From: Oscillospiraceae bacterium
GTDB lineage: Bacteria; Bacteroidota; Bacteroidia; Bacteroidales; WCHB1-69
Length of the DNA stretch: 64,000 nt
NCBI GenBank assembly: GCA_963620035.1
Contig: CAVEXN010000004.1
Coordinates: 13,979 to 77,978 of the forward strand
Direction of reading: 5' to 3'
Part shown: positions 18,316 to 62,863 of the stretch, piece by piece
How positions within the stretch are numbered: the first letter of the stretch is position 1
Layout: every line of letters begins with the position of its first letter
Program-made: the position numbers and the translations under genes
Notes under the pieces: model-generated
Told to the model about the DNA's origin: nothing
The model's database searches: none
The model's input: the letters and a program-made list of their open reading frames with translations, nothing else

Positions 18316-19323
18316 CTATTTCCTGATTTCTTTGGCCAATCTGGCGGTAAGCATCGGGATTATTTTGTGGACGTCGCCTACGATGCTCACGTCGGAGACG
18401 CCGAAAATCGGGGCGAACTTGTCTTTGTTGATGGCAATGATGAAGTCGGACTCTTCCATGCCGGCGAGGTGCTGGATGGCTCCGCTGATGCCGCATGCCA
18501 TATAGAGTGCCGGGCGGACGGTCTTGCCGGTCTGGCCGACCTGACGGCTGTGGTCGATGATACCGGCATCCACCATTGCGCGGGAAGAGGACACCTCTGC
18601 GCCGGGCAGCACGTCTGCCAATGCCTGAAGTTCATCAAAACCGGCCTTGTTTCCGACGCCGCGGCCGCCGGAAACGAGAATCTTGGCCTCCGTGATGTCA
18701 ACGGCGCCTTTGTCTTTCTTGACATCCTTCACCAGACGGACTTTGAACTTGCTGCTGTCGAATTGGGGCTTGAAGTCCACGATTTCGCCTTTGCGGGAGG
18801 CATCTCGTTCCATTTTCTGCATCACACCCGGACGGACGGTTGACATCTGCGGTCTGTGTTCCGTATTCAGGATGGTGGCCATCAGGTTGCCGCCGAAAGC
18901 AGGACGTGTAGATGCAAGCTGCATGTCTTCCGTGATTTCCAGTTTGGTACAGTCGGCAGTCAGCCCGGTGTTCAGACGGCAGGCAAGCCTCGGGGCCAGG
19001 TCACGACCTATCGTAGAGGCTCCGATCAGTATGATGCTGGGGTTGTAAGCCTGCACCATTTGGCAGATGGCCTGCGTATATTGTTCAGTCAGGTAGTGTT
19101 CAAGTTCGGGGGCATCCATGCAGATGACCTCGTCTGCACCATACTCGACAAGCATCTGTGCCTGGTCCTTGATGTTGTGTCCGGCAAGCACGGCGACGAC
19201 TTTTTCCTTAAGGTCTGCCGAAAGTTCATGTGCCTTACCGAGCAGCTCCAGTGCTACGGGTTGGATGATGCCGTCGCGCTGTTCAACGAATACATAAATG
19301 TTCTTATAATCGGATTTTTCCAT
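18316..19323 (-). CDS. etfA: electron transfer flavoprotein subunit alpha
   Basis: 335 aa with an FAD-binding C-terminal half ('VGQTGKTVRPALYMACGISGAIQHLAGM'). Confidence 0.92.
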   Translation of the reverse strand: MEKSDYKNIYVFVEQRDGIIQPVALELLGKAHELSADLKEKVVAVLAGHNIKDQAQMLVEYGADEVICMDAPELEHYLTEQYTQAICQMVQAYNPSIILIGASTIGRDLAPRLACRLNTGLTADCTKLEITEDMQLASTRPAFGGNLMATILNTEHRPQMSTVRPGVMQKMERDASRKGEIVDFKPQFDSSKFKVRLVKDVKKDKGAVDITEAKILVSGGRGVGNKAGFDELQALADVLPGAEVSSSRAMVDAGIIDHSRQVGQTGKTVRPALYMACGISGAIQHLAGMEESDFIIAINKDKFAPIFGVSDVSIVGDVHKIIPMLTARLAKEIRK

Positions 19324-19340
19324 TTTTGTTCGGTTCTCGG

Positions 19341-20123
19341 TTAAATAATATGTTTCTCTTTCAGTTTGTTGACGATAAGTTCGACGGCCTCGTCGGGACT
19401 CAATTCAAAGATTTCGCCGGGCTGTTTCTGCGGTTTGGCGAAGGACTTTTTCACGCGTGTGGGAGATCCGGAGAGACCGAGGCGTTTTTCGTCCACTTGA
19501 AGTTTGTCGGCGCTCCATACCTCGACTTCCTTGTCGTACGCTTCCATAATACCTTTCACGGTCATATAGCGGGGTTTCAAGGCTGAGGAGAGCACGGTGA
19601 GCACGCAAGGTGTATCCACTTCGAGGATCTGGTAACCCTCTTCGGTCTCTTTCGTCACGGTGCATCGTTTGTTGCCGTCGAACTCGAGGTTCATGGCATA
19701 GGTGACCTGCGGGAGGTCAAGGTGCTGGGCCAGAGACACCGGCGTCTGTGCCGTGTCGCCGTCGATGGCCTGACGGCCCGCAAGAATGAGGTCGTAGCCG
19801 ATCTCGCGGACTGCGCAAGACAACGCGTACGAAGTGGCCAGCGTGTCAGCGCCGGCGAATTTGCGGTCAGACAAAAGCACGGCACGGTCGGCGCCCATAG
19901 CGAAAGCCTCGCGGCAGATGACGTCTGCCTGGAGCGGACCCATCGTAAGGACGGTCACGTGTGCGCCGAACTTGTCTTTCAGTTGCAGCGCCATCTCGAG
20001 GGCTGCGGCATCGTCCGGGTTCAATATGCTGGGGACGCCTTCCCTGATCAGCGTGCCCTTGACAGGATCGATCTTGATGACATTAGTGTTGGGGACCTGT
20101 TTTATCGTTACTATAATATTCAT
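19341..20123 (-). CDS. etfB: electron transfer flavoprotein subunit beta
   Basis: Starts 'MNIIVTIKQVPNT' and contains 'LILAGRQAIDGDTAQT'. Start moved from 20222 to 20123. Confidence 0.92.
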   Translation of the reverse strand: MNIIVTIKQVPNTNVIKIDPVKGTLIREGVPSILNPDDAAALEMALQLKDKFGAHVTVLTMGPLQADVICREAFAMGADRAVLLSDRKFAGADTLATSYALSCAVREIGYDLILAGRQAIDGDTAQTPVSLAQHLDLPQVTYAMNLEFDGNKRCTVTKETEEGYQILEVDTPCVLTVLSSALKPRYMTVKGIMEAYDKEVEVWSADKLQVDEKRLGLSGSPTRVKKSFAKPQKQPGEIFELSPDEAVELIVNKLKEKHII

Positions 20124-20145
20124 AGTCTCTTGTGGTGTAAGTTTA

Positions 20146-21285
20146 TTATTTGAACAATTGTCCGGCAATGACCATTCTCTGGACCTCCGAAGTTCCCTCG
20201 TATATCTCCGTGATCTTGGCATCGCGCATCATGCGTTCTATTTCATACTCGCGGGTATAGCCGTAACCGCCGTGGAACTGGAGGCATTTTGTCGTAGTCT
20301 CCATAGCCGTGTCGGCGGCGAAGAGTTTAGCCATGGCTGCGTCCACGGAATAAGGGAGATGCATGTCTTTCTTCCATGCTGCTTTATAGACCAGCAGGCG
20401 TGCGGCCTCAATCTTGGCCTGAAGGTCGGCCATCTGGAACTGCGTGTTCTGGAAAGCGCTGATAGGCTTGCCGAACTGTTTTCTCTCTTTCGTGTATTTT
20501 ACGGTGACATCCATGGCGCCCTGGGCGATGCCGAGTGCCTGTGAAGCGATGCCGATACGGCCGCCGTCGAGGGTCATCATAGCAATCTTGAAACCTTTGC
20601 CCATTTCGCCCAACAGGTTCTCTTTTGGAATACGGCAGTTCTCGAATATCAGCTCGCAGGTGGCCGAACCGCGGATGCCCATCTTTTTCTCTTTCTTGCC
20701 GATAGAGAATCCGGGAGTGTCTTTCTCAACGATGAAGGCGGAGATGCCTCTGGTGCCTTGCGACTTGTCCGTCATGGCCATGACCACATAGACGTGGGCG
20801 TAGCCGGCGTTGGTGATGAAGATCTTGCTGCCGTTGAGCACCCATTCGTTGCCGTCGAGGACGGCCATGGTCTGCTGCATGGCGGCGTCGGTGCCGGCAT
20901 TGGGCTCCGTAAGGCCGAATGCGCCGATCCATTCTCCGGAGGCAAGCCTAGGCAGGTATTTCTTCTTCTGTTCCTCTGTGCCGAACTCCAGAATCGGGTT
21001 CATGCAGAGGGATGTGTGTGCGCTGACAATCACGCCGGTGGTGGCGCAAACTTTCGACAGCTCTTCCACTGCCTTGATGTACATTTGGTTGGTGCCGCCC
21101 TGTCCTCCGTATTCCAAGGGGATAGGAATGCCCATAATGCCTATGCGGGCCATCTTTTCGACAGTCTCGACGGGAAAGCGTTCCTGGTCATCGACTTCCG
21201 CGGCCAATGGCTGAACTTCTTCAGCAGCAAATTTGCGAATCATCTGCAGGAAGAGTTCTTCTCTTTTGTTCAAGCTAAAATCCAT
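20146..21285 (-). CDS. acyl-CoA dehydrogenase (short-chain/butyryl-CoA dehydrogenase-like)
   Basis: 379 aa. ACAD signatures 'GAFGLTEPNAGTD' and 'QFHGGYGYTREYEIERMMRDAKITEIYEGTSEVQ'. Sits immediately upstream of etfBA. Confidence 0.92.
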   Translation of the reverse strand: MDFSLNKREELFLQMIRKFAAEEVQPLAAEVDDQERFPVETVEKMARIGIMGIPIPLEYGGQGGTNQMYIKAVEELSKVCATTGVIVSAHTSLCMNPILEFGTEEQKKKYLPRLASGEWIGAFGLTEPNAGTDAAMQQTMAVLDGNEWVLNGSKIFITNAGYAHVYVVMAMTDKSQGTRGISAFIVEKDTPGFSIGKKEKKMGIRGSATCELIFENCRIPKENLLGEMGKGFKIAMMTLDGGRIGIASQALGIAQGAMDVTVKYTKERKQFGKPISAFQNTQFQMADLQAKIEAARLLVYKAAWKKDMHLPYSVDAAMAKLFAADTAMETTTKCLQFHGGYGYTREYEIERMMRDAKITEIYEGTSEVQRMVIAGQLFK

Positions 21286-21393
21286 ATTTAAATTAATTGT
21301 ATTGATATTGGTATTTCGTTAGTCCTGTGAGTTCAATTCGTCAGTAACGTGAGGTTCGCGAAGCAGGTTTGACCCCGGTTCCGCTCTGCAACT

Positions 21394-22062
21394 TCAGTCA
21401 AGTTGCATCGGCTTGAGGCCCGGAGAAACGGTGAAGTCTGCTTCGGTGGCGTTCCTTACGTCATCAACGGTGAACTCCGGGTGCAGTTCTGTGAGTTCCA
21501 GCCCATCAGGTGTCACCACCATCACGCACATTTCCGTGACGATCATGTTGACCTGTCCTTTTGCCGTCAGCGGCAGCGTGCATTTGTGAAGTATCTTGGG
21601 ATTCCCTTTCTGCGTATGTTCCATGGCCACGATGACCGTTTTCGCTCCGACCAGCAGGTCCATGGCGCCGCCCATGCCCGGGGTGAGCTTGCCGGGAATC
21701 ATCCAGTTGGCGATGTCGCCTTTCTCGTCAACCTGCATGGCACCCAAGACGGTAGCGTTCACGTGGCCGCCGCGGATGAGGGCGAAAGACTCGGCAGAAC
21801 TGAAAGAGGCTGCGCCGGGCTGTGCCGTGATGTAGCCGCCGCCGGAGTTGATGAGGTTTTCGTCTTCCCGGCCGGGTTCCGGCGTCGAGCCCATACCGAT
21901 CATGCCGTTCTCTGTCTGGAGAACCACATGCACGTCTTTAGGCAAATAGTCAGGCACCATTGTCGGAAGACCTATTCCCAAATTAACAATATCGCCGTCC
22001 TTGAGTTCTTTGGCAACTCTTTTGGCGATGATTTCACGCATTTGAGCTTTTTCCATAATCAA
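21394..22062 (-). CDS. class I CoA-transferase subunit B (3-oxoacid / acetate CoA-transferase beta)
   Basis: 222 aa. 'IVNLGIGLPT' and the catalytic-Glu motif 'LQTENGMIGMG'. No subunit A gene is adjacent. Confidence 0.85.
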   Translation of the reverse strand: MIMEKAQMREIIAKRVAKELKDGDIVNLGIGLPTMVPDYLPKDVHVVLQTENGMIGMGSTPEPGREDENLINSGGGYITAQPGAASFSSAESFALIRGGHVNATVLGAMQVDEKGDIANWMIPGKLTPGMGGAMDLLVGAKTVIVAMEHTQKGNPKILHKCTLPLTAKGQVNMIVTEMCVMVVTPDGLELTELHPEFTVDDVRNATEADFTVSPGLKPMQLD

Positions 22063-28063: not shown

Positions 28064-30127
28064 ATGACATTCGCTAACCCGCTGTTTCTGATCGGTCTTG
28101 CCGCAGTTCTGGTGCCGATTGTGATACATCTGTTCAACTTCAGGCGTTACAAAACCGTTTATTTCTCTAATGTGAAGATGCTGGAAGACATCAAGCGGAA
28201 AACGCGCCGCGAGCAGACGGTGCAGCAGCTTGTAGTTTTGGCTTTGCGCATTTCAGGTATCGCTGCGCTGGTGATGGCATTTGCCCAGCCCGCCATCGCA
28301 CCCAAGGAACAGGCCGGCAGGAAAGGCAACCTCATCACCGTTTTTCTCGACAACTCCTACTCCATGGAGACAGGCTCCGAAAACAGTTCGCTGCTTTACG
28401 ACGCCGTGGACGCCGCAAAGTCTATCGTTTCCTCGTTCGGCTTCTCCGACGACTTTGTGCTTACGACCCAGGACTTTTCCGGCGAAGAGACCCATATCCT
28501 GAACCGCGACCAGATGCTGGAGATGCTCGACAGAGTCAAAGTTTCGCCTAAAAGCCACTCTTTCCGCGACATCATCACCTTTGAACAGAACACTTGCAGC
28601 CGCTCTGCAAAAGACAACTTCATCCACTATTACATTTCCGATTTCCAGAAAAACGCTTTCGACATGAACGTCTTGCAAGACAGCAATGCGCATGCATTTC
28701 TGGTGCCGATGCCGGTAAGTGACCGCAGCAACGTAGGCGTTGACAGCGTATGGTTCCTCTCGCCGCTGTTCCGTACGGGCAGTCAGGTCACGCTGGTGGC
28801 CCGCATACACAACTACGGGAGCAGCGACATCGAGATGCTGCCCGTCAAACTCTACGTTCAGGACAAGCAGAAAGCCATTGCCGCCGTCGATATCAAAGCC
28901 GGCAGCACGCTCGACTGCCAATTGACCTACACCATTGACGGGACCGGCATCCAATGCGGCCGCGTGACCATTGAAGATGCCCCCGTCACTTTCGACAACG
29001 AGTTGTTCTTCACTTACAACGTCTCTGAAAACACGCATGTCTCTACCATCGCTGGCAACGGCAGCAACCGTTTCCTGCAAGCCCTCTATGGTAAGGATTC
29101 CGTGTTCAACTATCTTGAAATGCCGCTTAAGCAGATTAACTATACTCAACTGAAAAACAGCCAAGTAGTAGTGATGGACGAAGTTCCTTCTTTATCTTCG
29201 GGGCTGAAGGAGGAGATTTCCGCCCTTGTCAAAGGTGGCGGCACGTTAGTGGTACTTCCTGCGAAAGAAATGGACAAGAGTTGGCTGCAACTTTTCTCAT
29301 CGCTCGGAACCGGAAACTACGGCACGATACAAAAGAAAGAACTCAAGTGCGGATCTGTCAATATGGAAAGCCAGTATTTCAAGAACGCACTCGAAAACAG
29401 GCACGACCATCTCGATATGCCTACTGTCCTGCAACATTATCCGATACAGGGCGGCAGACAGGGCAGCGAAACACTGATGTTGCTGGAAGACGGCACGCCA
29501 CTGCTGACTGCCTTCCAAGTCGAAAAAGGGAAAGTCATTCTCTCCGCCGTCGCTATGAATGACGATTACGGCAATGTACATCGCCATGCGCTCTTCTTCG
29601 TGCCCATGCACAATATCGGCATTATGAGTGTTATGCAGGACAAACTTTACAATGTCATCGGGAAAGACCGGATGCAGAAGGTGAAGATAGACGGCGGGGT
29701 CGGAGGAACTGTCCTGTCGCTGAAGGCACGCGGTTCCAAAGAAGAATTCATCCCCGAGCAGCGGGCTTCCGGCAACGAAACGGCACTCTTCTTTCACGAC
29801 CAGATTGGCGGCAGCGGCTTCTACGACCTCATACGCGACGGCGCAGTATGCGGAACGCTCGCATTCAACTTTGACCGGCAGGAGTCAGACCTCGACTTCT
29901 ACGACGACAAAGCGCTCCGCAAAATGGCAAAGTCATCCGGCATGAAAGTTGAAGTTGTCCCCTCCGGCACGAAGAACATAGCGAAGAATGTCACCGACAC
30001 GCTGCATGGCAAGCAACTGTGGCTCTATTTCGTCATCTTTTCCTTGCTCTGCTTCCTGTCTGAAACAGCACTGCTGCGTTTCTGGGGCAGACCCAAAATC
30101 AACAACAACGAAAACCTTAAATCCTAA
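28064..30127 (+). CDS. BatA N-terminal-domain (aerotolerance-related) membrane protein
   Basis: 687 aa. The N-terminus 'MTFANPLFLIGLAAVLVPIVIHLFNFRRYKTVYFSN' is the characteristic BatA-N motif. A C-terminal TM helix is present. Confidence 0.72.
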   Translation: MTFANPLFLIGLAAVLVPIVIHLFNFRRYKTVYFSNVKMLEDIKRKTRREQTVQQLVVLALRISGIAALVMAFAQPAIAPKEQAGRKGNLITVFLDNSYSMETGSENSSLLYDAVDAAKSIVSSFGFSDDFVLTTQDFSGEETHILNRDQMLEMLDRVKVSPKSHSFRDIITFEQNTCSRSAKDNFIHYYISDFQKNAFDMNVLQDSNAHAFLVPMPVSDRSNVGVDSVWFLSPLFRTGSQVTLVARIHNYGSSDIEMLPVKLYVQDKQKAIAAVDIKAGSTLDCQLTYTIDGTGIQCGRVTIEDAPVTFDNELFFTYNVSENTHVSTIAGNGSNRFLQALYGKDSVFNYLEMPLKQINYTQLKNSQVVVMDEVPSLSSGLKEEISALVKGGGTLVVLPAKEMDKSWLQLFSSLGTGNYGTIQKKELKCGSVNMESQYFKNALENRHDHLDMPTVLQHYPIQGGRQGSETLMLLEDGTPLLTAFQVEKGKVILSAVAMNDDYGNVHRHALFFVPMHNIGIMSVMQDKLYNVIGKDRMQKVKIDGGVGGTVLSLKARGSKEEFIPEQRASGNETALFFHDQIGGSGFYDLIRDGAVCGTLAFNFDRQESDLDFYDDKALRKMAKSSGMKVEVVPSGTKNIAKNVTDTLHGKQLWLYFVIFSLLCFLSETALLRFWGRPKINNNENLKS

Positions 30128-30131
30128 AAAA

Positions 30132-31592
30132 ATGAATACAGAACTTTTAAAATTGTATCCGCACGACTTGTGGGAGAATTTCGGACACCTCTGCGATGCT
30201 CCGCATCCGTCAAAACATGAAGAACCTGCCATCAGATGGATGAAGCAATGGGCAGCCGACCATAAAGTGCAGGTAGAGCAGGACGAGACCGGAAACCTGC
30301 TGTTCACGATTCCTGCCACCCCGGGCATGGAGGACAGGATGCCCGTCATCTTGCAAGCCCATACCGACATGGTGCCGCAAGCCGACAGCGACAAGAAACA
30401 CGACTTCCTGAAAGACCCGATCGAGCCCATCATCGACAACGGCTGGGTTCGTGCCAACAGAACCACATTGGGGGCGGACGACGGCATCGGCGTTTGTGCA
30501 GCCCTGGCCTGCGTCACCACCGAAGGCGTCGAACACGGTCCACTTGAAATTCTGGTGACAATTGACGAAGAGACGGGCATGACAGGCGCATTCGGTCTGA
30601 AAAAAGGTTTTGTGAAAGGCAAAATCCTCATCAATCTCGATTCTGAAACCGAAGGTGAAATCTTTGTCGGCTGCGCCGGCGGTCTGGATGCCAACTTTGA
30701 CAGAACCTACAACACGATGCCTACGCCGGCAGAGATGAAAGGCTATCAGATGATCGTTTCGGGGCTTCACGGCGGTCACTCCGGCATGGACATCCACCTT
30801 GGCCGCGGAAATGCCAACAAGATTGCCGTCCGTTTCATCACGCGTGCCATCAAGCAGTTTGGCGCATGCCTCGCCACGGCCTCGGGCGGAAGCCTCCGCA
30901 ACGCCATCCCGCGCGAAGCCTCTGCCGTGCTGGCGGTACCTGCCGCAAAAGCTGCCGAATTCGAATCCTTTGCCCACACCTTTGAGCAGACCGTCAAGAA
31001 CGAATTTGCCGCCACGGAGAAAGAAATGTCGGTAAAAATCACCGCTGTTGACACCCCGGACGTGGTTGTCGAAACCAAAGCGCAGAACCAGTTCCTGAAT
31101 ATGCTCTTCGCCATCCCTAACGGCGTGCTCCGTATGAGCGACTCTATGGAAAACCTGGTTGAAACCTCGAACAATCTGGCTGCTTTCAAGGCCGAGAATG
31201 GCAAGATGAGTGCCATCTGCCTGCTCCGCAGCTCCGTCAACAGTGCCAAGGATGCGCTCGGCGACAGGATGACCGCCATTGCAGAACTTGCCGACTGCAA
31301 CATCGAACTGTCCGGCGCCTATCCCGGCTGGAACCCCAATATGGAGTCTCCCATCCTGAACATCTGCAAAAAAGTGTATGTCGAGAAATTCAACCGGCAG
31401 CCCAAGATTATGGCCATCCATGCCGGCCTTGAGTGCGGACTGTTCGGCGCGTGCTACCCCGACTGGGATATGGTGTCGTTCGGCCCCACCATCCAGCATC
31501 CCCACTCTCCCGTAGAGCGTGTCAACATTGACAGCGTAGGCAAATTCTTCGACTTCATCGTTGCCGTACTCAAGAATATTCCCGTGAAATAG
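30132..31592 (+). CDS. pepD: aminoacyl-histidine dipeptidase (M20C, PepD)
   Basis: 486 aa from MNTELLKLYP. 'LQAHTDMV', 'GADDGIG' and 'IDEETGMTGA' metal-ligand motifs. Confidence 0.92.
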   Translation: MNTELLKLYPHDLWENFGHLCDAPHPSKHEEPAIRWMKQWAADHKVQVEQDETGNLLFTIPATPGMEDRMPVILQAHTDMVPQADSDKKHDFLKDPIEPIIDNGWVRANRTTLGADDGIGVCAALACVTTEGVEHGPLEILVTIDEETGMTGAFGLKKGFVKGKILINLDSETEGEIFVGCAGGLDANFDRTYNTMPTPAEMKGYQMIVSGLHGGHSGMDIHLGRGNANKIAVRFITRAIKQFGACLATASGGSLRNAIPREASAVLAVPAAKAAEFESFAHTFEQTVKNEFAATEKEMSVKITAVDTPDVVVETKAQNQFLNMLFAIPNGVLRMSDSMENLVETSNNLAAFKAENGKMSAICLLRSSVNSAKDALGDRMTAIAELADCNIELSGAYPGWNPNMESPILNICKKVYVEKFNRQPKIMAIHAGLECGLFGACYPDWDMVSFGPTIQHPHSPVERVNIDSVGKFFDFIVAVLKNIPVK

Positions 31593-36228: not shown

Positions 36229-37128
36229 TTATCCTATATGCTTCAATTTCTCCACAACGACGGGGCGGTCTTCCTGATAGGTGACGCCGAACCATTCGGC
36301 CTGACTGTGAAGCACTTTGATGCGTGCAAGACCATTGTTCATCAAATAGGATATCACGTCCGGAATCGGGAACTCCGCCGTGACGTTCTGCTGGTTCTCT
36401 TTGAGGAATTGGGAAAAAAGACCTTCAAGGCAGTTGAAAAAGGCAGGTGTGAACCCCCAGAAATTCATACTGACAGGCTCCTCTCCGCTGAATACACGGT
36501 GTCTTCCTTCTTCAAGGTTTTCGATTACATTTCCCATGCGTGCGATCTTACGGTTCTCTTCAATAGTCTTCAGGAACCCGTTCTCGTCAGTGGAACAGAC
36601 CCCTCTTGAAACGGTACCGTTGTCAGACAAAGTCTTGTCTAGGCGATAACCCACCATAGCATACACAGGATGTTCCGATGACTGTTCTTCATGCAAAAAA
36701 GCAGCCATGGCTCCGAAAGCCTCCTTGCCATAAAAGTCATCTGCATTTATGACGGTGAAAGGCTCGTGTACGGCATCCTTGGCCACAAGGATGGCATGTG
36801 CCGTGCCGTAAGGCTTCTTCCGTTCCTCATTCAAGGTGAAACCCTCGGGAAGCATATCCAACTCCTGGAAAACATAATCCACTGACATGCTGTCGGCATA
36901 GCGCGGAAGCACATAGCGTCTGAAATCCTCTTCCATAGAGCGGCGGATGACAAAGACTGTCTTCCCGTATCCGCTCTCGGCGGCATAGCGGACGGCGTAG
37001 TCCATTATCGTTTCGCCATTGGGACCCATGGGGTCCAACTGTTTCAATCCACCATAACGGCTCCCCATACCGGCAGCCAAGACAAGTAATGTTGGTTTTT
37101 TCATCGTATTATGATTTTTAGTTTCCAT
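36229..37128 (-). CDS. sugar-phosphate nucleotidyltransferase family protein
   Basis: 299 aa. NTP-transferase signature 'LVLAAGMGSRYGGLKQ'. An alternative start is the MKKPTLL Met at 37104. Specificity cannot be read from the sequence. Confidence 0.75.
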   Translation of the reverse strand: METKNHNTMKKPTLLVLAAGMGSRYGGLKQLDPMGPNGETIMDYAVRYAAESGYGKTVFVIRRSMEEDFRRYVLPRYADSMSVDYVFQELDMLPEGFTLNEERKKPYGTAHAILVAKDAVHEPFTVINADDFYGKEAFGAMAAFLHEEQSSEHPVYAMVGYRLDKTLSDNGTVSRGVCSTDENGFLKTIEENRKIARMGNVIENLEEGRHRVFSGEEPVSMNFWGFTPAFFNCLEGLFSQFLKENQQNVTAEFPIPDVISYLMNNGLARIKVLHSQAEWFGVTYQEDRPVVVEKLKHIG

Positions 37129-37151: not shown

Positions 37152-38456
37152 TTACGGCGCCATATTGAAATAATCCTCCAGCAGAGCGTCTTCAATCTGT
37201 CCCATCTGGACATTGATGTAATGTTTGATAAGGTATTTGTCTTTGCGGCTCTCCAAGATGCGTTTCAAGGCCTCGTTCACCTCCCCTATTGTCCCCACGC
37301 ACTCGAAAGGCTTATGGGTGGAGAAGCCCGCAAGCTCGTCAAAGACATGTTCCAATTCCGGATTGTCGAGCAAGTCTTCGCCGAAGATGTCAATCATCAC
37401 GGCATCGTCAACGAACGGCGAGAGGATGATGTAGGCGAAAAGACATTTTGAACACTTGCAGCACCACTTGTCCTCCTTGCTTCCGGCATTGCAGCTCTTG
37501 AAAGTGTGGAAATACTGTGGATAGTGTGCGAACTTCCCGGCAATCTGCAGTTCCGTGAACGGGCGGAGGTAACTGAAATAATGGTTGGAATTACCCATGA
37601 ACCGTTCAACATAGTTGCGGAAATCCTGCTCGAATTCCAGTGATTTGGAATACTGGTGGTTGATGTGCGTTCCTATGACCGTAGGCTCGTCAGCGCTGGC
37701 CTCGTTGGAGAGCGCCACGTCACGTATGCCTGTCACAGCAGAGACAAGTACAGAATAGAATGCCAACATAGCGGAAAAAGGCGTATGTCCGTTGAGGAAT
37801 CCCTCACCGTTGAGCCGTAACAGCAGCGGGTCGATGGTACGCTGCATCCTGATGACCTTCTCCGGAGCGTCAAATCCGGCAATGCGCGCGCACTCCAACG
37901 TGGTCCCTCTTGGGTTTATGATGAACGGCGCCACCTGACGCTGCCGTCCCAGTTCCTCGAGCGTAACCACCGAGTCTTTTCCGCCGCCTATCGGCACGAT
38001 TACATGGTTGCTTTCTTTCATCTTCGGATACGAGAACGACTCCGCCTTGGCGCTGCTCGCCCCGAAAGTGAAGTCCATAAACGTTCTGGCATCGCTCCGG
38101 ATGCCGTTCTTGTAGAAAAACTCGCCCAGGCCGTTCCAGTACAATTTGCGCCACCAGTCCTGCTGCTCCTCATTCAAACGGCAGGGCTTGATATGGACGA
38201 CAGGGCTGCATGTGCATTTCCAATAACTAATCAGTTCCATCAAGCCGATATGGAATACCATTCCATCAAGTTCGGACAAGTCAGCGGGGAATGCGGACCA
38301 GATGCCGGGGCTCAACACGGCACACGGTGAGAACTCAATCGTCTCTCCGATGTTGAAAAAGAACTTCAGGTGCAAGTCGTCGCCTATCCGTTTGTATTCG
38401 TATCCCTCGTAAGTGAAAACAGGATATCGGGTGCGTAATTCTTCAAATTTTGCCAT
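37152..38456 (-). CDS. uncharacterised PP-loop-like (SGGxDS-type) protein with C-terminal Cys cluster
   Basis: 434-aa ORF. 'VPIGGGKDS' lies at residues 154-162 (37971-37997). 'C-x9-CC-x-C-x2-C' lies at residues 322-337 (37446-37493). 'KPFECVGTIGE' is near the C-terminus. Confidence 0.75.
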   Translation of the reverse strand: MAKFEELRTRYPVFTYEGYEYKRIGDDLHLKFFFNIGETIEFSPCAVLSPGIWSAFPADLSELDGMVFHIGLMELISYWKCTCSPVVHIKPCRLNEEQQDWWRKLYWNGLGEFFYKNGIRSDARTFMDFTFGASSAKAESFSYPKMKESNHVIVPIGGGKDSVVTLEELGRQRQVAPFIINPRGTTLECARIAGFDAPEKVIRMQRTIDPLLLRLNGEGFLNGHTPFSAMLAFYSVLVSAVTGIRDVALSNEASADEPTVIGTHINHQYSKSLEFEQDFRNYVERFMGNSNHYFSYLRPFTELQIAGKFAHYPQYFHTFKSCNAGSKEDKWCCKCSKCLFAYIILSPFVDDAVMIDIFGEDLLDNPELEHVFDELAGFSTHKPFECVGTIGEVNEALKRILESRKDKYLIKHYINVQMGQIEDALLEDYFNMAP

Positions 38457-38484: not shown

Positions 38485-39234
38485 TCAGTCCGTGTCCTTG
38501 AGGCAGCGTACCGGGTATGCGGCCTCTTTAGGGGTGCAGTTTATTTCAACGGTGGCATTCGAAGCCGAGAAAAAATGGACCGGCGATGTTGCATCGCTAC
38601 CTTCAGAGGCTGTCCAGAATCCCGTGTTCGTTCCGAAACCGTCGTGCCCTTTCCAGAAGCAGCCTGACGGCAAGGCGCAGAAGCCGGAAGCATCATTGTT
38701 CTCGGGGGTATCTGCAATGCTGCAAGGCGTGAGCAGGTCAGACTGTCCGGAGCCCCAAACTTCGCGGGAGGCCAACGCTTTCGCCACATTGTTCACGTCT
38801 GAGCCACAGCGGTACTCGTCTCGGTAGCCCAGGAAGTCCTCCAGCGCCATCCATTCGAGATTGGATGGCAGGTGCCATCCGTCGGGGCAGATGCCTTGTA
38901 CGCCACTCGGGACATCCTCCGTCGCCCGGGCTCCGTTCACGGCTTCATTCCAAGTATAAAGCAGCCCGTATTTCAGCACGTTGGCCGGATTACCTCCCGG
39001 GAAACGATCTTCCCCTAAATGGCGAGTAAAGGCTGTCAACTCTGAGCCGTCCGGGGCATACGTCGTCCGCAGGTTGTCGCGCATCCAGCACTGCTGCCCC
39101 AACATGACCGTGCGGTAAAGATTTCCCTCGCTGTCTTTCACCTTTCCGCAATCCTGCAACTGCGCCGCAATGCGGTTGAGCGGAAACGCAAGCAGAAGCA
39201 AAGCGCAAAGAAGGTCGTTTCTCCCTATTCCCAT
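38485..39234 (-). CDS. FISUMP (Fibrobacter succinogenes major paralogous) domain secreted protein
   Basis: 249 aa. Signal peptide plus 'QCWMRDNL', 'YGLLYTWNEA' and 'ICPDGWHLPSNLEW' family motifs. The start overlaps the upstream gene by 10 nt. Confidence 0.8.
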   Translation of the reverse strand: MGIGRNDLLCALLLLAFPLNRIAAQLQDCGKVKDSEGNLYRTVMLGQQCWMRDNLRTTYAPDGSELTAFTRHLGEDRFPGGNPANVLKYGLLYTWNEAVNGARATEDVPSGVQGICPDGWHLPSNLEWMALEDFLGYRDEYRCGSDVNNVAKALASREVWGSGQSDLLTPCSIADTPENNDASGFCALPSGCFWKGHDGFGTNTGFWTASEGSDATSPVHFFSASNATVEINCTPKEAAYPVRCLKDTD

Positions 39235-40700
39235 CCGTCGAAAATTTCAGGTCCATAGACATTGTGTTCTCCTTTATGCTGGGGCAGCCAGACCTGTGCA
39301 AAGAACGGGCTGTGCCGGGCAAGGTCGTCATAGTCCCATGCGGGCGGCAGACAATCGGGACACCAGTGCCCGCCCAGCAGTATAAGTTTCGGCGAAGCCT
39401 CGAAGCGGTGCCCCTTGTGGCATTGCCACGTCAGTTTCTTTTCGGCGTCCCCGCCATATGAGTCAGACAGAAGCTTGCCGCCCCGGAACTCGGCCGCCCT
39501 CCGCAATTCGTCCAGTGAAAGTTCGGACAACGGCTTGTTCTCGTCGTAGCCATGGTCTATATGGACGGCCTGCCCGATACCGGGCGGTTCCGACAAGTCC
39601 ATATCGTTCCAGTCGGGAATATTGCGCCAGTTCTCTAAGTTGCCGTAATAGGCTTTGATGCGGTTCTGGTCGTTGTGCTTGATCCACCATTGTGTTCCCC
39701 ATTGTTTTTTGTTGGCCATAAGCGACATCACGGCTTTGATAAGGCCCGCCGGCACTATTTCCGCCATCTTGAAATAGCCGGGCAAGTCGCGGCTCATCCC
39801 CTCGAAATAGGTCTCGGCATCCTTATGGCGGCGAAAATGCAGGAAGTTTTCCAAGAGGTCTGCATCCAGATAATACTGTCCGTGGAAATTGCGCAACACA
39901 AACCAGTTTGCATTGAAAATCTTCTCGGGCGGCGGGCAATGTACGGCCTGGAGGATGAGGCGTTCGAACTTGTAGTTGGTCATCCGGAAGCCGGAGCCGC
40001 TGCTGATATTGTAGAAACGGTTCCAGAAACACTCGGGCACATCCTCGCCACACACATTGGCGAGCAGCCGGCCGGAGTCCTCCACGGTGGCCCATTCCAG
40101 CACTCCCCGGACGGGCACATGGAACATGATGGGGTCGAAGTTCTTGAGTATGCCGGGATAGAGTATGCCCGACTGCCGGAGGCTGACCCAATGTTTGAGC
40201 CCCGAGTCGGCAAAGATGCGTTCCGCCTTTATTTTGCTGATGCCGTAATGGTCATATACGCTGGCACAAACGGGGTCGCCGGTGCGTCCCCAATGCAACG
40301 GCGCGTTCCGGTCGGAAGTCTGTGCCACAGAGCCTATGTAAACCACCTTGATGTCGTCTGCGTTTGGCTGCGCCAAAACCGCATTTACGACGTTCTGCGC
40401 CGAGGTGACATTCACATACATGGTCTTTTTAGGATAATAGTCGGCAGACGGCGAAACCATACCGCCCACATGCAGCACATAGTCAGCCCCTTTGACACCG
40501 GCGAGCACATCTTCATACCGGGTCAGGTCGCCCCACACTATGTTAACCTTGTCTTTCACGGGTGCCAGTTTCTTGATATTCTTTTCGCTGCGGCGTGCAA
40601 GGACAGTCACGTCGTACAGGTCAGGCTTGCGGAGCAATTCCTGCAGCCCCGCCCACCCCATCACGCCGGTGGCGCCAGTAAGGAAAACGCGTTTTTTCAT
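39225..40700 (-). CDS. extended-SDR NAD(P)-dependent epimerase/dehydratase-like protein fused to a zinc-ribbon-like C-terminal domain
   Basis: 491 aa. 'VFLTGATGVMGWAG' Rossmann motif and 'YGISK' (YxxxK). The C-terminal ~100 aa carry 'WQCHKGHRFEASPKLILLGGHWCPDC' (C-x3-H...C-x2-C). Confidence 0.8.
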   Translation of the reverse strand: MKKRVFLTGATGVMGWAGLQELLRKPDLYDVTVLARRSEKNIKKLAPVKDKVNIVWGDLTRYEDVLAGVKGADYVLHVGGMVSPSADYYPKKTMYVNVTSAQNVVNAVLAQPNADDIKVVYIGSVAQTSDRNAPLHWGRTGDPVCASVYDHYGISKIKAERIFADSGLKHWVSLRQSGILYPGILKNFDPIMFHVPVRGVLEWATVEDSGRLLANVCGEDVPECFWNRFYNISSGSGFRMTNYKFERLILQAVHCPPPEKIFNANWFVLRNFHGQYYLDADLLENFLHFRRHKDAETYFEGMSRDLPGYFKMAEIVPAGLIKAVMSLMANKKQWGTQWWIKHNDQNRIKAYYGNLENWRNIPDWNDMDLSEPPGIGQAVHIDHGYDENKPLSELSLDELRRAAEFRGGKLLSDSYGGDAEKKLTWQCHKGHRFEASPKLILLGGHWCPDCLPPAWDYDDLARHSPFFAQVWLPQHKGEHNVYGPEIFDGWE

Positions 40701-43715: not shown

Positions 43716-43816
43716 CAAAAAAGCCGCCAACTGTGGCTTTTTCCGCAACGTCCGCCATGTTTTCCGTGTCATAACGGCTGAGATGAAAAAAAGGAATCTC
43801 GATGCAGAAAAAAATG

Positions 43817-43824
43817 TACATTTG
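43817..43824 (+). promoter_or_regulatory. candidate -7 promoter box (TAnnTTTG)
   Basis: tacatttg, 23 nt upstream of the crt ATG at 43847. Confidence 0.45.
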
Positions 43825-43846
43825 CCAACTCAAAAATCAATCTGCA

Positions 43847-44623
43847 ATGGAATACAAATTCTTGAAAATCCAGAAGAGAGGCGCAATCTGCACATTAGCC
43901 ATTTCTGCGCCCAAGACATTGAACGCCCTGAACTCGTCCGTTCTGTCAGAAATGGACGAGTTCATCAGCAACATAGACGCAGACATCCACGTGCTCATCA
44001 TCACCGGCGACGGCGAGAAGAGTTTCGTGGCCGGGGCTGACATTTCCGAAATGCAGCATCTCAACGAAGAGGAGGGCGAACGTTTCGGCAAACTCGGGGC
44101 CTCTGTGTTCCGCAAGGTCGAGACGTTGCCTGTGCCGGTCATCGCTGCCGTCAACGGTTTCGCCTTGGGCGGCGGCTGCGAGCTGGCGCTGGCCTGCGAC
44201 ATCCGTATCGCGTCCAACAAAGCCAAATTCGGACAGCCGGAAGTGGGACTGGGCATCATCCCGGGCTTTTCCGGCACGCTCAGGCTGGCCAAGGCCGTCG
44301 GCATCGGGTATGCCAAGGAGATGATCTATTCCGGAAAGACAATCCGTGCCGACGAAGCCCTGCGCATCGGACTGGTCAATGCCGTATGCGAACCCGATGA
44401 ACTGATGGGCCACGTCATGGAACTGGCAGAGAAAATCGCATCTAACGCCCCGATTGCGGTGAAGTACGCCAAAAAGTGCATCAACGAAGAATACGATATG
44501 GCCGCGGACGAGGGCATCGCTTTCGAGAACAAGATGTTCGGGAAATGCTTCGCCACGGAAGACCAGAAAAACGGCATGTCCGCGTTCCTGTCCAAGTCAC
44601 AGACCGAATTCAAGAACAAGTAA
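43847..44623 (+). CDS. crt: enoyl-CoA hydratase (crotonase)
   Basis: 258 aa from MEYKFLKIQ. 'SFVAGADISEM' and 'AAVNGFALGGGCELALACD' crotonase-fold motifs. Confidence 0.9.
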   Translation: MEYKFLKIQKRGAICTLAISAPKTLNALNSSVLSEMDEFISNIDADIHVLIITGDGEKSFVAGADISEMQHLNEEEGERFGKLGASVFRKVETLPVPVIAAVNGFALGGGCELALACDIRIASNKAKFGQPEVGLGIIPGFSGTLRLAKAVGIGYAKEMIYSGKTIRADEALRIGLVNAVCEPDELMGHVMELAEKIASNAPIAVKYAKKCINEEYDMAADEGIAFENKMFGKCFATEDQKNGMSAFLSKSQTEFKNK

Positions 44624-44656
44624 AACCTCAATTCAACATTTAAATATATCCAGATT

Positions 44657-45493
44657 ATGAAAATTTGCGTTATTGGAACAGGAACAATGGCTAAAGGCAT
44701 CGTCAAGGCATTTGCCGCCAAGATGCCCGTAGTGATGAAAAGCAGAACACAGGCCGGCCTGGACAAGGCCATGGGTTCTTTCGTGAAGTCTTACGGAAAA
44801 CTGGTCGAAAAGGGCAAACTTACGCAGGATGCCGTTGATGCCATTCTGAAAAACATCACGACAACGACGGATTATGCCGCTTTTGCCGACGCCGACCTCG
44901 TCATCGAGGCGGCCGTCGAAGACATGCAACTAAAAAAAGACGTGTTCACCGAACTCGACGGCATCTGCAAACCCGAAACGATATTCGCGACGAACTCCTC
45001 CTCGCTGTCCATCACGGAAATCGCATCATGCACAAAACGCCCCGAGCGTTTCATCGGCATGCACTTCTTCAACCCTGCCGACAGGATGGCTCTTGTTGAG
45101 GTCATCAAAGGGCAGATGACCTCCGACGAGGTTTGCAACCTGATTGTTGACTTGGCCACTTCCATCGGCAAGACACCGGTGGCCGTCAACGAAGCCCCGG
45201 GATTTGTCGTGAACAGGATACTCATCCCGATGATCAACGAGGCTGTCGGAATCCTGGCCGACGGCATCGCCAGCGCTGAAGACATCGACAAGTGCATGAT
45301 GTTAGGGGCTAACCATCCTATGGGACCACTTGCACTGGCCGACCTTATCGGCAACGATGTCAACCTCGCCATCATGGAAGTACTCTACCACGAGTTCGGC
45401 GACCCCAAATACCGTCCACACCCGCTGCTCCGCAAGATGGTTCGCGCAGGTCTGCTGGGACGCAAGACCGGACAAGGCTTCTACAAGTACTGA
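44657..45493 (+). CDS. hbd: 3-hydroxybutyryl-CoA dehydrogenase
   Basis: 278 aa. '[15 protein letters not shown]' Rossmann motif, 'HFFNPA', and '[15 protein letters not shown]'. Confidence 0.92.
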
Positions 45494-59335: not shown

Positions 59336-60853
59336 ATGCAATTTACTGATATAGAAAGCATTCTGTTTGACAACGCTCCGCTATCCTTGGCTCCGGAAGT
59401 CAGGAAACGTATGGAAGACAGTTTTGATTTTCTGAAAGAATTCGCCCAAGACAAAATCATATATGGCATCACCACGGGTTTTGGCCCGATGGCGCAATAC
59501 CGCGTTTCAGACGAAGACATAAAGACATTGCAATACAACATCATACGCAGTCATTCTTGCGGTGCCGGAGAGCCATTCCCTGAAATATATGTGAAAGCCG
59601 CCATGCTGGCCCGGTATCACACCTTTGTGAAAGGCAAATCCGGGGTTGACCCTTACGCCCTTGACCTTCTGCAGACTTTCATCAACAAAGGGATCTGTCC
59701 GGTCATACCGCAGCACGGCAGCGTAGGTGCGTCTGGCGACTTGGTGCAGCTGGCACATCTTGCCCTTGCCCTCATCGGAGAAGGCGAGGTTTTCTACCAA
59801 GGGGAACGGCGCAGGACGGCCGACGTGATGTCCGAATTGGCCATCCCCCCCCTGAAACCGACCCTCCGCGAAGGTTTGGCGCTCAACAACGGCACAGCCA
59901 TGATGACCGGTGTTGGCATCGTCAACCTCCACTATGCCAACGTACTGCTCGAAACGGCGCTCTTGGCCTCTGTCATGATGAACGAAATCGCGGCCTCTTA
60001 CGACGATTTCATGTCAAAAGAGCTCAACGAACTGAAAAACCACGAAGGGCAATGCATCATCGCCGCAAAGATGACCGAAATAGCGCAAGGGTCAAAATGC
60101 CTGCGCAAACGTGCCGAGGAGATGTTCCATCATCACGAGGAGAAAGTATTCACGCACAAGGTGCAGCCTTACTATTCGCTGCGCTGTGTGCCGCAAATCC
60201 TCGGCCCAGTGCTCGACGCTATGCGCTTCACGGAGAAGATTCTCACCGAAGAGTTCAATGCGGTTGACGACAACCCCGTTGTGGACATGGATACCCGAAC
60301 CGTCTATCACGGCGGCAACTTCCACGGCGACTATGTGGCGTTTGAGATGGACAAACTCAAGATTGCCGTCACGAAGATGACGATGCTTATGGAACGGCAA
60401 CTCAATTACTTGTGCCACGACAGGATAAACGGCATCCTGCCGCCGTTCCTGAACATGGGCACTCTGGGGCTCACCTACGGCATACAGGCGCTCCAGTTCA
60501 CGGCATGTTCCACCACCGCAGAATGCCAGACACTCGCCAATCCAATGTATGTACACAGCATACCCAACAACAACGACAACCAGGACATCGTCAGCATGGG
60601 CACCAATGCGGCTATTCTCGCCAAACGGGTCATCGACAACAGTTTCCAGGTGATGGCCATCCATCTCATCGGAATCGCACAGGCGGTCGACTGCCTGAAA
60701 ATCAGCGACAGTCTCTCGCCCGTCACGGACGGTCTCTACCGCGAAATCAGAAATATCGTACCGGTAATCATCGAAGACACCCCTAAGGATGCGGACATCC
60801 GGAACGTCATCGGATTCCTCAAGAAACAACGAAACCGTTATCTGCCGCTATGA
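59336..60853 (+). CDS. MIO-dependent aromatic amino acid/histidine ammonia-lyase family enzyme
   Basis: 505 aa. 'YGITTGFG' and the MIO-forming 'GSVGASGDL' (Ala-Ser-Gly at 59729-59737). HAL/PAL/TAL fold throughout. Confidence 0.9.
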   Translation: MQFTDIESILFDNAPLSLAPEVRKRMEDSFDFLKEFAQDKIIYGITTGFGPMAQYRVSDEDIKTLQYNIIRSHSCGAGEPFPEIYVKAAMLARYHTFVKGKSGVDPYALDLLQTFINKGICPVIPQHGSVGASGDLVQLAHLALALIGEGEVFYQGERRRTADVMSELAIPPLKPTLREGLALNNGTAMMTGVGIVNLHYANVLLETALLASVMMNEIAASYDDFMSKELNELKNHEGQCIIAAKMTEIAQGSKCLRKRAEEMFHHHEEKVFTHKVQPYYSLRCVPQILGPVLDAMRFTEKILTEEFNAVDDNPVVDMDTRTVYHGGNFHGDYVAFEMDKLKIAVTKMTMLMERQLNYLCHDRINGILPPFLNMGTLGLTYGIQALQFTACSTTAECQTLANPMYVHSIPNNNDNQDIVSMGTNAAILAKRVIDNSFQVMAIHLIGIAQAVDCLKISDSLSPVTDGLYREIRNIVPVIIEDTPKDADIRNVIGFLKKQRNRYLPL

Positions 60854-62847: not shown

Positions 62848-62863
62848 ACAACGATATCATTTT

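Follow-up and report, generated by a model that had tools for sequence, protein, structure and literature searches.

The window, i.e. the whole stretch of DNA analysed here, comprises 64,000 nt from an Oscillospiraceae bacterium (GTDB Bacteroidales, WCHB1-69; GCA_963620035.1, contig CAVEXN010000004.1, positions 13,979-77,978). An ORF on the minus strand at 37152-38456 was translated to 434 aa plus a stop, which confirmed the gene as listed by an earlier sequence-only reading. We refer to it as the murL-family ORF. It is followed 23 nt downstream by a second minus-strand gene (36229-37128), which encodes a 299 aa protein similar to sugar-phosphate nucleotidylyltransferases (Pfam NTP_transferase). 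The product of this second gene has a homolog in PDB entry 3pnn (E 1.4e-89), which is listed as a 'conserved domain protein' and is uncharacterised. The gene is probably co-transcribed with murL.

All features of the murL-family product are encoded on the minus strand. Its N-terminal domain (residues 1-146, 38019-38456) corresponds to Pfam MurL_N. The QueC-like PP-loop ATP-pyrophosphatase core (residues 150-345, 37422-38009) was recognised by Foldseek, hhalign and a PDB profile search. The PP-loop VPIGGGKDS (residues 154-162, 37971-37997) lies exactly where it was first noted; it is a variant of SGGxDS with Gly in first place, and it is predicted to hold the pyrophosphate of ATP.

Conservation marks two further, invariant motifs of the core as candidate active-site elements: NGHTPFS (residues 222-228, 37773-37793), with invariant His224, and INHQYSK (residues 265-271, 37644-37664), with invariant N266, H267, Q268 and K271. 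The four-Cys cluster C322-x9-C332-x2-C335-x2-C338 (37443-37493) is a predicted structural Zn site, based on conservation and the alignment to QueC. The cluster is present as previously described, but the range given for it (residues 322-337, 37446-37493) was one codon short of Cys338, a trivial error, and the 18 aa string quoted for it begins at Ser321. The MurL-specific C-terminal extension carries KPFECVGT (residues 382-389, 37290-37313). This motif falls outside the part aligned with QueC (the hhalign alignment stops at residue 345), and its invariant Cys386 is a candidate catalytic thiol.

Fold and conserved motifs

The AF2 model of the window protein had a pLDDT of 92.5 and placed the GGGKDS loop after a strand (151-155) and before a helix (160-170). 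The top Foldseek matches of this model were PP-loop ATPases, with QueC (3bl5) first (probability 1.00, TM-score on target 0.60) and NAD synthetase, LarE and MnmA among the further matches. The PDB profile search returned PP-loop enzymes only (TtuA with E 8e-5, then MJ0690, MnmA, GMP synthase and QueC). Every one of these matches aligned on the GGGKDS loop, the counterpart in TtuA being SGGKDS. In hhalign, positions 151-345 of the MurL profile were aligned to residues 3-210 of E. coli QueC, with GGGKDS on SGGQDS. Taken singly, the QueC alignments are statistically weak (local E 0.0076 in hhalign, E 1.6e-3 in Foldseek).

The three independent approaches support the original description of the loop as a degenerate PP-loop. 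The window protein has an SGGxDS-type loop in a Rossmann-like core, by which the PP-loop ATP pyrophosphatase superfamily is recognised. As judged from sequence and model, the loop is consistent with a conversion of ATP to AMP and PPi.

The MurL_N domain was modelled separately (pLDDT 88.3). Foldseek of this model alone gave weak RNase H-like matches, with TM-scores of ≤0.35 in the leading ones and a maximum of 0.40. Kinship with RNase H-like proteins was dismissed as not meaningful, which leaves the domain without a convincing structural relative. The near-invariant residues of MurL_N are G71, E74, S77, Y78, W79, K80, G109, E112 and N117, and the domain presumably binds the substrate.

Conservation was assessed in two homolog sets, which together were 37-54% identical to the window protein. 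The first consisted of 150 cluster representatives (40-54% identical) and the second of 118 proteins, whose few named members were from Verrucomicrobiota and Firmicutes. The fraction of the 150 representatives matching the window residue was close to one throughout the PP-loop (G157 0.94, G158 0.99, G159 1.00, K160 0.99, D161 1.00, S162 0.98) and for five Cys residues (C322 0.99, C332 1.00, C335 1.00, C338 1.00, C386 0.99). In the second set, G157-S162 and the same five Cys were each conserved in 118 of 118 proteins.

C333 was the exception: it matched in a fraction of 0.19 of the representatives and was replaced by Gly in 102 of the 118 proteins. The cluster had been written as C-x9-CC-x-C-x2-C; four of its Cys are near-invariant and C333 is variable, so the functional motif reads C-x9-C-x2-C-x2-C. 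With this correction, neither the GGGKDS loop nor the Cys cluster is a chance feature, as both are near-invariant in the two sets. A position-by-position check against the 150 representatives found no site with at least 80% agreement at which the window protein deviates. Hence, there is no sign of an altered function.

Relation to the MurL family

MurL is an enzyme that converts L-Glu to D-Glu on a cell-wall precursor, driven by ATP. A relationship to it had been suggested tentatively from the sequence and was borne out. The window protein matched the NCBIfam model NF041275 (MurL_Xanthomonadales) with E 1.3e-72 and 244.7 bits (residues 71-422 against profile positions 65-417 of 447). This score is below the equivalog cut-off of 700 bits, and PGAP would therefore not call the protein MurL. 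A score far under the cut-off is expected because NF041275, the sole curated MurL model, was built for Xanthomonadales only. The window protein is in the same range as two MurL proteins fused to MurD-like ligases (264 and 233 bits) and as further homologs (243-286 bits). As the fused proteins score no higher, the cut-off fails to separate function outside Xanthomonadales.

In precomputed annotation, homologs at 56-96% identity carry Pfam PF26299 and PF26298. MurL_N and MurL_epimerase_C were present on 120 of the 120 matches listed in each of two homolog searches, and on every MurL-family gene at the loci looked up. A scan of the window protein with a Pfam set that did not include the two MurL models gave sub-threshold noise only (DUF6395 and CMIP6). 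The phmmer search against PDB sequences gave no match at E up to 10, and therefore none of the solved structures is that of a MurL relative. In the literature search, no MurL structure was found either, and MurL was unreported in Bacteroidetes. A high-GC representative was also tried as a query leading towards a tested MurL; the few named homologs it led to were from Verrucomicrobiota and Clostridia, not from Xanthomonas or actinobacteria.

The protein is thus placed in the MurL family. Being assigned confidently to a characterised family lowers its novelty, while the interpretation as an ATP-dependent adenylating enzyme is still supported. The window protein is of a known enzyme type, found here in a lineage without MurL reports in the searchable literature. 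In our assessment, the product of 37152-38456 is very probably a MurL-family enzyme of an uncultured gut or rumen Bacteroidales that is separated from its partner ligase. In practice, the gene changes from "hypothetical protein" to probable MurL.

QueC was the best structural match, and both the PP-loop and the four-Cys motif align with it. The same core and four-Cys Zn motif also occur in QatC (PMC13376578). The protein could thus be read as a 7-deazaguanine enzyme of the QueC family or as a QueC-like anti-phage component (QatC-like, CBASS type IV). Pfam and NCBIfam gave no QueC match, and neither QatABD-like nor queuosine genes were found nearby. PADLOC returned nothing for the protein and its neighbours, so a defence-system role was rejected. 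In addition, the N- and C-terminal regions of the protein are specific to MurL, its match to the MurL profile is strong, and its relatives are systematically fused to or located beside Mur ligases. The QueC-family or anti-phage reading is effectively refuted.

The relationship to QueC bears on the metal at the Cys cluster. In hhalign, Cys322, 332, 335 and 338 fall on the C-terminal cluster TCYNGFKGD-GCGHCAAC of E. coli QueC (Cys188, 197, 200 and 203, numbering read by eye off the printed sequence), which we take to be the zinc site of QueC. QueC has been described as having a Zn motif of four Cys, for which a structural role was suggested (PMC13376578). Since the four Cys align with the QueC cluster, Zn is more likely than Fe-S in the window protein.

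The enzyme had first been described as possibly metal- or Fe-S-dependent. Fe-S is now the less likely option. It would imply an oxygen-sensitive PP-loop enzyme similar to TtuA, TtcA or NcsA, with a catalytic [4Fe-4S] bound by the Cys cluster. TtuA was indeed the best PDB sequence-profile match, and the organism probably lives anaerobically in gut or rumen. Nevertheless, the TtuA match is confined to the PP-loop (residues 140-184), and the spacing C-x9-C-x2-C-x2-C offers four ligands, unlike the known TtuA-type clusters, which use three. Moreover, the QueC cluster to which the four Cys align is Zn-binding (PMC13376578), and the published requirements of recombinant Xanthomonas MurL are ATP and Mg only, with no mention of Fe-S (PMC5808125). 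An Fe-S enzyme of this type appears highly improbable.

Partner ligases and gene neighbourhood

We surveyed 80 GTDB species loci with MurL homologs. A MurD2-like gene was directly downstream of MurL in 49 of the 80 loci, three of the 49 being true fusions. Among the 56 species with relatives at 47-53% identity, 49 had a MurD-like ligase either directly downstream of MurL or fused to it. An Oscillospiraceae MAG likewise has a MurL and MurD2-like gene pair. Of the 150 cluster representatives nearest to the window protein, 38 were long (at least 780 aa). Mur ligase domains were found in 10 of 10 scanned with Pfam, and a MurD-like part was present in 37 of the 38. These partner ligases are routinely annotated as D-glutamate ligases.

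X. oryzae MurD2 with the exchange E197D/R358K uses D-Glu instead of L-Glu, and E. coli MurD with K319T accepts L-Glu (PMC8788868). In the 37 fused ligase domains, the position of E. coli MurD Asp182 was Glu in 33, Lys348 was replaced by Arg in 37 and Lys319 by Ile, Leu or Ala in 37. The 120 stand-alone Bacteroidales ligases were even more uniform (119 have Glu, and all 120 have Arg as well as Ile at Lys319). Judged by these aligned positions, the ligases partnering MurL relatives bear the stereospecificity residues of MurD2 (Glu197 and Arg358, X. oryzae numbering).

The earlier remark that the gene has no MurD2-type ligase beside it was correct for the window: tblastn with E. coli MurD gave no match in the 64 kb, and Pfam scans of the main window ORFs found no Mur ligase. 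The ORF at the 3' end of the window was considered as the missing MurD2 and rejected, as this region encodes an ACP and then an LpxL-like acyltransferase. The absence of an adjacent ligase is shared by the window clade (the 24 closest species, at least 55% identity), in which murL and murD2 are apart. In one species of this clade (L030), the ligase lies ~3-5 kb from MurL on the opposite strand. At two further loci (L091 and L093), a ligase with the MurD2 signature is ~3.3 kb from MurL. In GCA_017454945.1, from the same clade, MurL (60% identical to that of the window) is on JAFTCA010000078.1 and a ligase with the MurD2 signature is on JAFTCA010000017.1. Judging from these relatives, the genome of the window presumably encodes MurD2 as well.

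MurI was not seen in the 80 loci, although a view restricted to loci says little about genomes. A link to the dcw cluster was rejected: MraY, FtsW, MurG and MurC were near no MurL/MurD2 locus, and FtsA and FtsZ were ~6 kb away at one locus only (L027). The upstream FISUMP lipoprotein and an SDR protein were rejected as partners, as their synteny does not extend beyond the closest relatives (L009, L010 and L001).

The NTP_transferase gene was directly downstream of MurL in 6 of the 80 loci, all in the 24-species clade (L009, L010, L014, L015, L029 and L030). It was also directly downstream in L001, L091 and L093, and two genes away in L006. A nucleotidylyltransferase is sometimes found beside MurL in the clade, which would allow for another nucleotide-sugar substrate. 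The MurL of the clade, once parted from MurD2, might have been repurposed to adenylate, and perhaps epimerise, another carboxylate. This could be another nucleotide-sugar-linked amino acid or a glycan precursor made with the adjacent nucleotidylyltransferase. The loss of MurD2 adjacency in all 24 closest species fits this idea, as does the NTP_transferase gene, which starts 23 nt after murL in the window and is the next gene downstream in nine other loci.

However, all strongly conserved residues of the family are retained, and the gene is directly downstream in just 6 of the 24 clade loci. It also adjoins MurL in L030, L091 and L093, despite the ligase with the MurD2 signature ~3 kb away. Finally, a genome of the clade keeps such a ligase, whose L-Glu precursor would be a dead end without MurL. 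We therefore regard a repurposed paralog as unlikely and retain the assignment of the window protein as a probable MurL, presumably acting with a MurD2 encoded elsewhere.

Proposed reaction and known systems

The MurL reaction requires ATP and Mg, releases AMP and runs one way (PMC5808125, PMC8788868). In the window protein, the GGGKDS loop of the QueC-like core would bind ATP, and the free alpha-carboxylate of the terminal Glu would be adenylated with release of PPi. The C-alpha proton would be acidic in the activated acyl compound and could be taken off and put back from the opposite face. Hydrolysis would then free AMP and the D-Glu product and make the reaction one-way. Cys322, 332, 335 and 338 would hold a structural Zn, like the equivalent cluster of QueC, and the MurL_N domain probably holds the UDP-MurNAc-peptide. 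The intermediate may be a Cys386 thioester or an oxazolone, and the catalytic residues and the Zn are likewise predicted. Reviews describe MurL as one that "lacks known conserved domains". The QueC-like core, the four-Cys site and the extra invariant Cys provide concrete residues to mutate in MurL.

The family comprises 2,603 clusters at 50% identity, and two peptide patterns found it in at least 588 GTDB species. On these sequence counts, it is far larger than the published handful of proteobacterial and actinobacterial genera, with many members in gut and rumen Bacteroidales. MurL/MurD2 is an alternative, ATP-consuming route for D-Glu into peptidoglycan and a proposed narrow-spectrum antibiotic target. 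A wider proposal is plausible but somewhat doubtful: a large radiation of uncultured Bacteroidales of gut, rumen and sediment, as well as members of Verrucomicrobiota, Clostridia and the candidate phyla radiation, might obtain their wall D-Glu via MurD2/MurL only, in place of the glutamate racemase route. Their MurL would be QueC-derived, with a structural Zn, and would proceed from an acyl-adenylate to a Cys386 thioester or an oxazolone. If so, the MurD2 ligases of these lineages now carry the names of D-glutamate ligases.

The window protein resembles known MurL in its nearly full-length match to NF041275, in the same two Pfam domains and in its length (434 aa against a 447-position profile). 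In sister lineages, its relatives occur next to, or fused to, ligases bearing the MurD2 signature, and the predicted PP-loop chemistry fits the ATP-to-AMP requirement. Unlike the MurL gene of Xanthomonas, the window gene is not beside murD2, and its MurL activity is predicted from sequence. The published distribution comprises rare actinobacteria as well as Gamma- and Alphaproteobacteria, and homologs of low similarity are on record from cyanobacteria, one fungus and one amoeba. The host of the window, an uncultured Bacteroidales, lies outside this distribution.

With QueC (PDB 3bl5, 2pg3), the protein shares the PP-loop core, carboxylate adenylation (predicted for MurL) and, residue for residue, the C-terminal four Cys. 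QueC is shorter (~230 residues), lacks MurL_N and the KPFECVGT extension, and has the loop SGGxDS instead of GGGKDS. In the QueC reaction, ammonia converts the adenylate first to an amide and then to a nitrile, and there is no epimerisation.

LarE (PDB 8cp3), TtuA, MnmA and NAD synthetase share the PP-loop fold, but the relationship is remote (structural probability 0.5-0.6 for LarE), and they differ from MurL in substrates and outcomes. LarE, a sacrificial sulfur-insertase in the synthesis of the lactate racemase cofactor, adenylates a carboxylate, and the thiol of a conserved Cys then attacks this group. By analogy, this chemistry is a possible precedent for a Cys386 thioester in MurL.

MurI and canonical MurD serve the same physiological end, i.e. 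D-Glu at position 2 of the stem peptide. The fold and logic of MurI are unrelated: it acts reversibly on free Glu, which it racemises by means of two Cys and without a cofactor, whereas MurL epimerises after ligation, irreversibly and at the expense of ATP.

Assignment to MurL and conserved motifs

The window protein matched the NCBIfam model MurL_Xanthomonadales with an E value of 1.3e-72 (244.7 bits; residues 71–422 on profile positions 65–417 of 447). Every homolog returned carried the precomputed Pfam domains PF26299 (MurL_N) and PF26298 (MurL_epimerase_C); against a Pfam copy lacking both MurL models, the window protein gave no match. The link to MurL, which the sequence-only reading had offered tentatively, was thus right. 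The score is below the cut-off of 700 bits, which belongs to an equivalog model for a single order. With the same model, MurL domains fused to MurD-type ligases scored 233–264 bits and other homologs 243–286 bits. Because these scores fall in the same range, the distance of the window protein from Xanthomonas MurL is about the same as theirs. The family is already known: curated models exist and the JGI pipeline names some homologs MurL. The window protein is therefore a further member of it and not a new family.

The ORF (37152–38456, -) is real and encodes 434 residues, and homologs starting at the same place back its start codon. VPIGGGKDS lies where it had been placed (residues 154–162, nt 37971–37997), and the ORF translation puts KPFECVGT at residues 382–389 (nt 37290–37313, -). 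The Cys cluster C322-x9-C332-C333-x-C335-x2-C338 (nt 37443–37493, - in the translation) is present as well; its coordinates had been quoted one codon short of the last Cys, a trivial offset.

Conservation was determined in two sets. For the first, 150 proteins representing clusters at 50% identity were aligned over their MurL region; they are 40–54% identical to the query. The fraction with the window residue was 0.94 for G157, 0.99 for G158, 1.00 for G159, 0.99 for K160, 1.00 for D161 and 0.98 for S162. It was 0.99 for C322 and C386, 1.00 for C332, C335 and C338, and 0.19 for C333. The second set comprised 118 homologs around one representative, 37–50% identical to the window protein; its named members were Verrucomicrobiota (relatives of the central representative), Oscillospiraceae and Herbinix. 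Here, G157–S162, C322, C332, C335, C338 and C386 were kept in all 118, and position C333 was Gly in 102. The loop and the Cys motifs are, judged from these alignments, more than chance. GGGKDS and four of the cysteines were kept in both sets, and C333 of the CC pair was not; because C333 varies and the other four are conserved, the functional motif is predicted to be C-x9-C-x2-C-x2-C. Other invariant residues were Y78, K80, R206, N222, H224, P226, N251, E252, N266-H267-Q268, K271, R298, K337, K382, P383, G388 and E392.

Predicted fold, metal site and mechanism

The AlphaFold2 model was confident (mean pLDDT 92.5, pTM 0.89). Its best Foldseek match in the PDB was QueC 3bl5 (probability 1.00, E 1.6e-3, TM-score on target 0.60), followed, amid unrelated Rossmann folds, by the NAD synthetases 2e18 and 3p52, LarE 8cp3, MnmA 2deu and PH1313, in line with the proposed PP-loop. 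When PDB sequences were searched with a profile built from 83 diverse family members, only PP-loop enzymes were found, each on the GGGKDS region: TtuA (8e-5), then MJ0690, MnmA, GMP synthase and QueC. No MurL relative was found among PDB sequences. When the family profile was compared with E. coli QueC by hhalign, residues 151–345 aligned with QueC 3–210, GGGKDS with SGGQDS, and SCNAGSKEDKWCCKCSKC with TCYNGFKGD-GCGHCAAC. Each of these matches is statistically weak, and they agree with each other on a PP-loop, QueC-like core. According to reviews, MurL lacks known conserved domains (PMC5808125, PMC8788868).

In the hhalign alignment, C322, C332, C335 and C338 each pair with one of the four Cys in the C-terminal QueC cluster (Cys188, 197, 200 and 203, counted by eye from the printed sequence). 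We take this cluster to be the QueC zinc site. In QueC, a structural role has been suggested for a zinc motif of four Cys (PMC13376578), and for recombinant Xanthomonas MurL, ATP and Mg are the sole requirements given in published accounts (PMC5808125). Because of this alignment and these requirements, Zn is favoured over Fe-S at the predicted site. For the N-terminal domain, modelled by itself with a pLDDT of 88.3, Foldseek found no convincing structural relative; leading TM-scores were ≤0.35 and the maximum was 0.40.

In PP-loop enzymes, PPi is released as an oxygen of the substrate is adenylated. This chemistry fits the published MurL stoichiometry of ATP to AMP, and we therefore propose an adenylation mechanism: the alpha-carboxylate of the terminal Glu would be adenylated, C-alpha would be inverted and hydrolysis would follow. 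His224, His267, Lys271 and Glu252 are candidate acid/base residues. Cys386, also invariant, is found beyond the region common to MurL and QueC and might form a thioester; an oxazolone with the preceding amide would be a chemically reasonable alternative to this thioester.

Partner ligase and gene neighbourhood

The partner of MurL is MurD2, a MurD-like ligase adding L-Glu (PMC5808125, PMC8788868). The earlier remark that none is adjacent holds: tblastn with E. coli MurD found no Mur ligase in the 64-kb window, and Pfam scans found no Mur ligase domain in its main ORFs.

Among the 150 nearest representatives, 38 were ≥780 aa long. All ten long representatives scanned had Mur ligase domains (Mur_ligase_M, frequently accompanied by Mur_ligase_C and MurD-like_N), and 37 of the 38 had a part matching E. 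coli MurD (order MurL-MurD in 35, MurD-MurL in 2). At E. coli MurD Asp182, 33/37 fused ligases had Glu; at Lys348, 37/37 had Arg; at Lys319, Ile, Leu or Ala was found. In X. oryzae MurD2, E197D/R358K switches L-Glu to D-Glu, and in E. coli MurD, K319T permits L-Glu as a substrate (review of mutagenesis, PMC8788868, section 5). As their specificity positions match these switch residues, the fused ligases are assigned by sequence to the MurD2 type. The fusion P0125 (1247 aa) has an extra C-terminal M20 peptidase domain; others (P0139; P0220, 1193 aa) have long linkers or insertions between domains.

One genome per GTDB species was scanned with two conserved peptides, and the family was found in at least 588 species. 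Among the best 80 of these, nearly every record was from an uncultured organism labelled Bacteroidales or Bacteroidota and sampled from rumen, gut, sediment or lake; the exceptions were two records labelled Clostridia and one labelled only "bacterium". A MurD2-like gene was directly downstream of MurL in 49 of the 80 loci (including three true fusions); one further locus had it nearby, and the other 30 lacked it. The split tracks relatedness to the window protein: the pair was present in 49/56 loci at ≤53.5% identity, and an adjacent MurD2 in 0/24 at ≥55% (the window's own clade). None of the pairs lay in a dcw cluster. An Oscillospiraceae MAG had the same pair with overlapping genes.

In three loci with MurL 55–57% identical to the window's (L030, L091, L093), an NTP_transferase gene is directly downstream, as in the window, and a MurD-like ligase lies ~3.3 kb off, past fabH-, KAS- and fabZ-like genes. 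With this ligase as the query, the 120 best matches were all stand-alone Bacteroidales proteins, with Glu (119/120), Arg (120/120) and Ile (120/120) at the MurD2 signature positions; several had no MurL nearby. Co-occurrence was found by matching accession numbers and then assemblies. The goat rumen MAG RGIG3681 (GCA_017454945.1) encodes the MurL homolog P0076 (60% identical to the window's) on contig JAFTCA010000078.1, with no ligase within the 4–10 kb of flanking sequence, and the MurD2-signature ligase P0326 on contig JAFTCA010000017.1, adjoining lepA. In another MAG, the accession numbers of MurL and ligase are six apart. Because GCA_017454945.1 encodes both on separate contigs, the clade appears to retain MurL and a MurD2-type ligase, merely unlinked. 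Nor is there a sign of altered function in the window protein as judged by its residues, since it differs at none of the positions where ≥80% of the 150 representatives agree.

MurD-like ligases with the L-Glu signature were L030:5308-6690 (-), P0292–P0411 and P0121 (residues 470–923); in such Bacteroidales ligases, E. coli Asp182 is replaced by Glu, Lys348 by Arg and Lys319 by Ile. Those scanned pass TIGR01087 (murD) with 315–334 bits (cut-off 212). At NCBI, such proteins go under the name "UDP-N-acetylmuramoyl-L-alanine--D-glutamate ligase", which probably misannotates them systematically; JGI uses L-glutamate ligase for some.

The gaps from MurL to its upstream and downstream genes are 28 and 23 nt, with no terminator-like site on the MurL strand between them, which suggests co-transcription. 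The downstream nucleotidylyltransferase (36229–37128, -; 299 aa) is homologous to PDB 3pnn (E 1.4e-89), an uncharacterised structural-genomics "conserved domain protein". It is directly downstream of MurL in six of the best 80 loci and in L001, L091 and L093, and many clade members lack it there. A functional link is possible because both would act on nucleotide-sugar metabolism. The gene recurs beside MurL in some Bacteroidales lineages. As its only other PDB matches are glucose-1-phosphate uridylyltransferases (2ux8, 6ikx), it looks more GalU/UGPase-like than MurU-like.

Only the closest relatives share the synteny of two further neighbours, a FISUMP lipoprotein and an SDR protein with a zinc ribbon at its C-terminus. 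The latter (39225–40700, -; 491 aa) combines an SDR domain (NAD-dependent epimerase/dehydratase) at the N-terminus with a weak treble-clef zinc finger match at the C-terminus (DUF4379, E 0.0014). The stop of its gene and the start of the FISUMP gene overlap by 10 nt, and its synteny is found only in the closest relative, L009. PADLOC gave no match for MurL, the nucleotidylyltransferase, the FISUMP lipoprotein or the SDR protein.

Elsewhere in the window, a run of genes at 59336–64000 (+) is similar to Bacteroidota clusters for flexirubin or aryl-polyene pigments (aromatic amino-acid ammonia-lyase, SDR ketoreductase, beta-ketoacyl synthase, acyl carrier protein, LpxL-like acyltransferase); the stop codon of its last gene is also the exact end of the window. 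A butyryl-CoA type pathway is represented by genes at 18316–22056 (-; ETF alpha subunit, acyl-CoA dehydrogenase, CoA-transferase subunit) and 43802–45493 (+; crotonase, 3-hydroxyacyl-CoA dehydrogenase), and the latter pair is also near MurL in loci L006 and L007. A BatA-domain gene (28064–30127, +) is overlapped by 140 nt at its end by the longest ORF called for a dipeptidase-like gene (29988–31592, +), for which an ATG further downstream is probably the real start.

Reach of the family and comparison with published MurL

The MurL family comprises 2,603 clusters at 50% identity and spans Bacteroidales, Verrucomicrobiota, Clostridia and one Nomurabacteria MAG. The homolog from this last MAG (P0130, MDH5442417.1; Candidatus Nomurabacteria, candidate phyla radiation) is 50% identical to the window protein; if it was binned correctly, the family extends to very reduced genomes. 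L076 and L078, Clostridia-labelled MAGs among the best 80, have a MurL 48% identical to the Bacteroidales query with MurD2 downstream; the bins may be mislabelled, or Firmicutes may truly carry the gene (cf. L111, an Oscillospiraceae locus). Compared with the literature searched, two points are new: how large and taxonomically broad the family is, and the predicted QueC-like PP-loop and four-Cys architecture of MurL.
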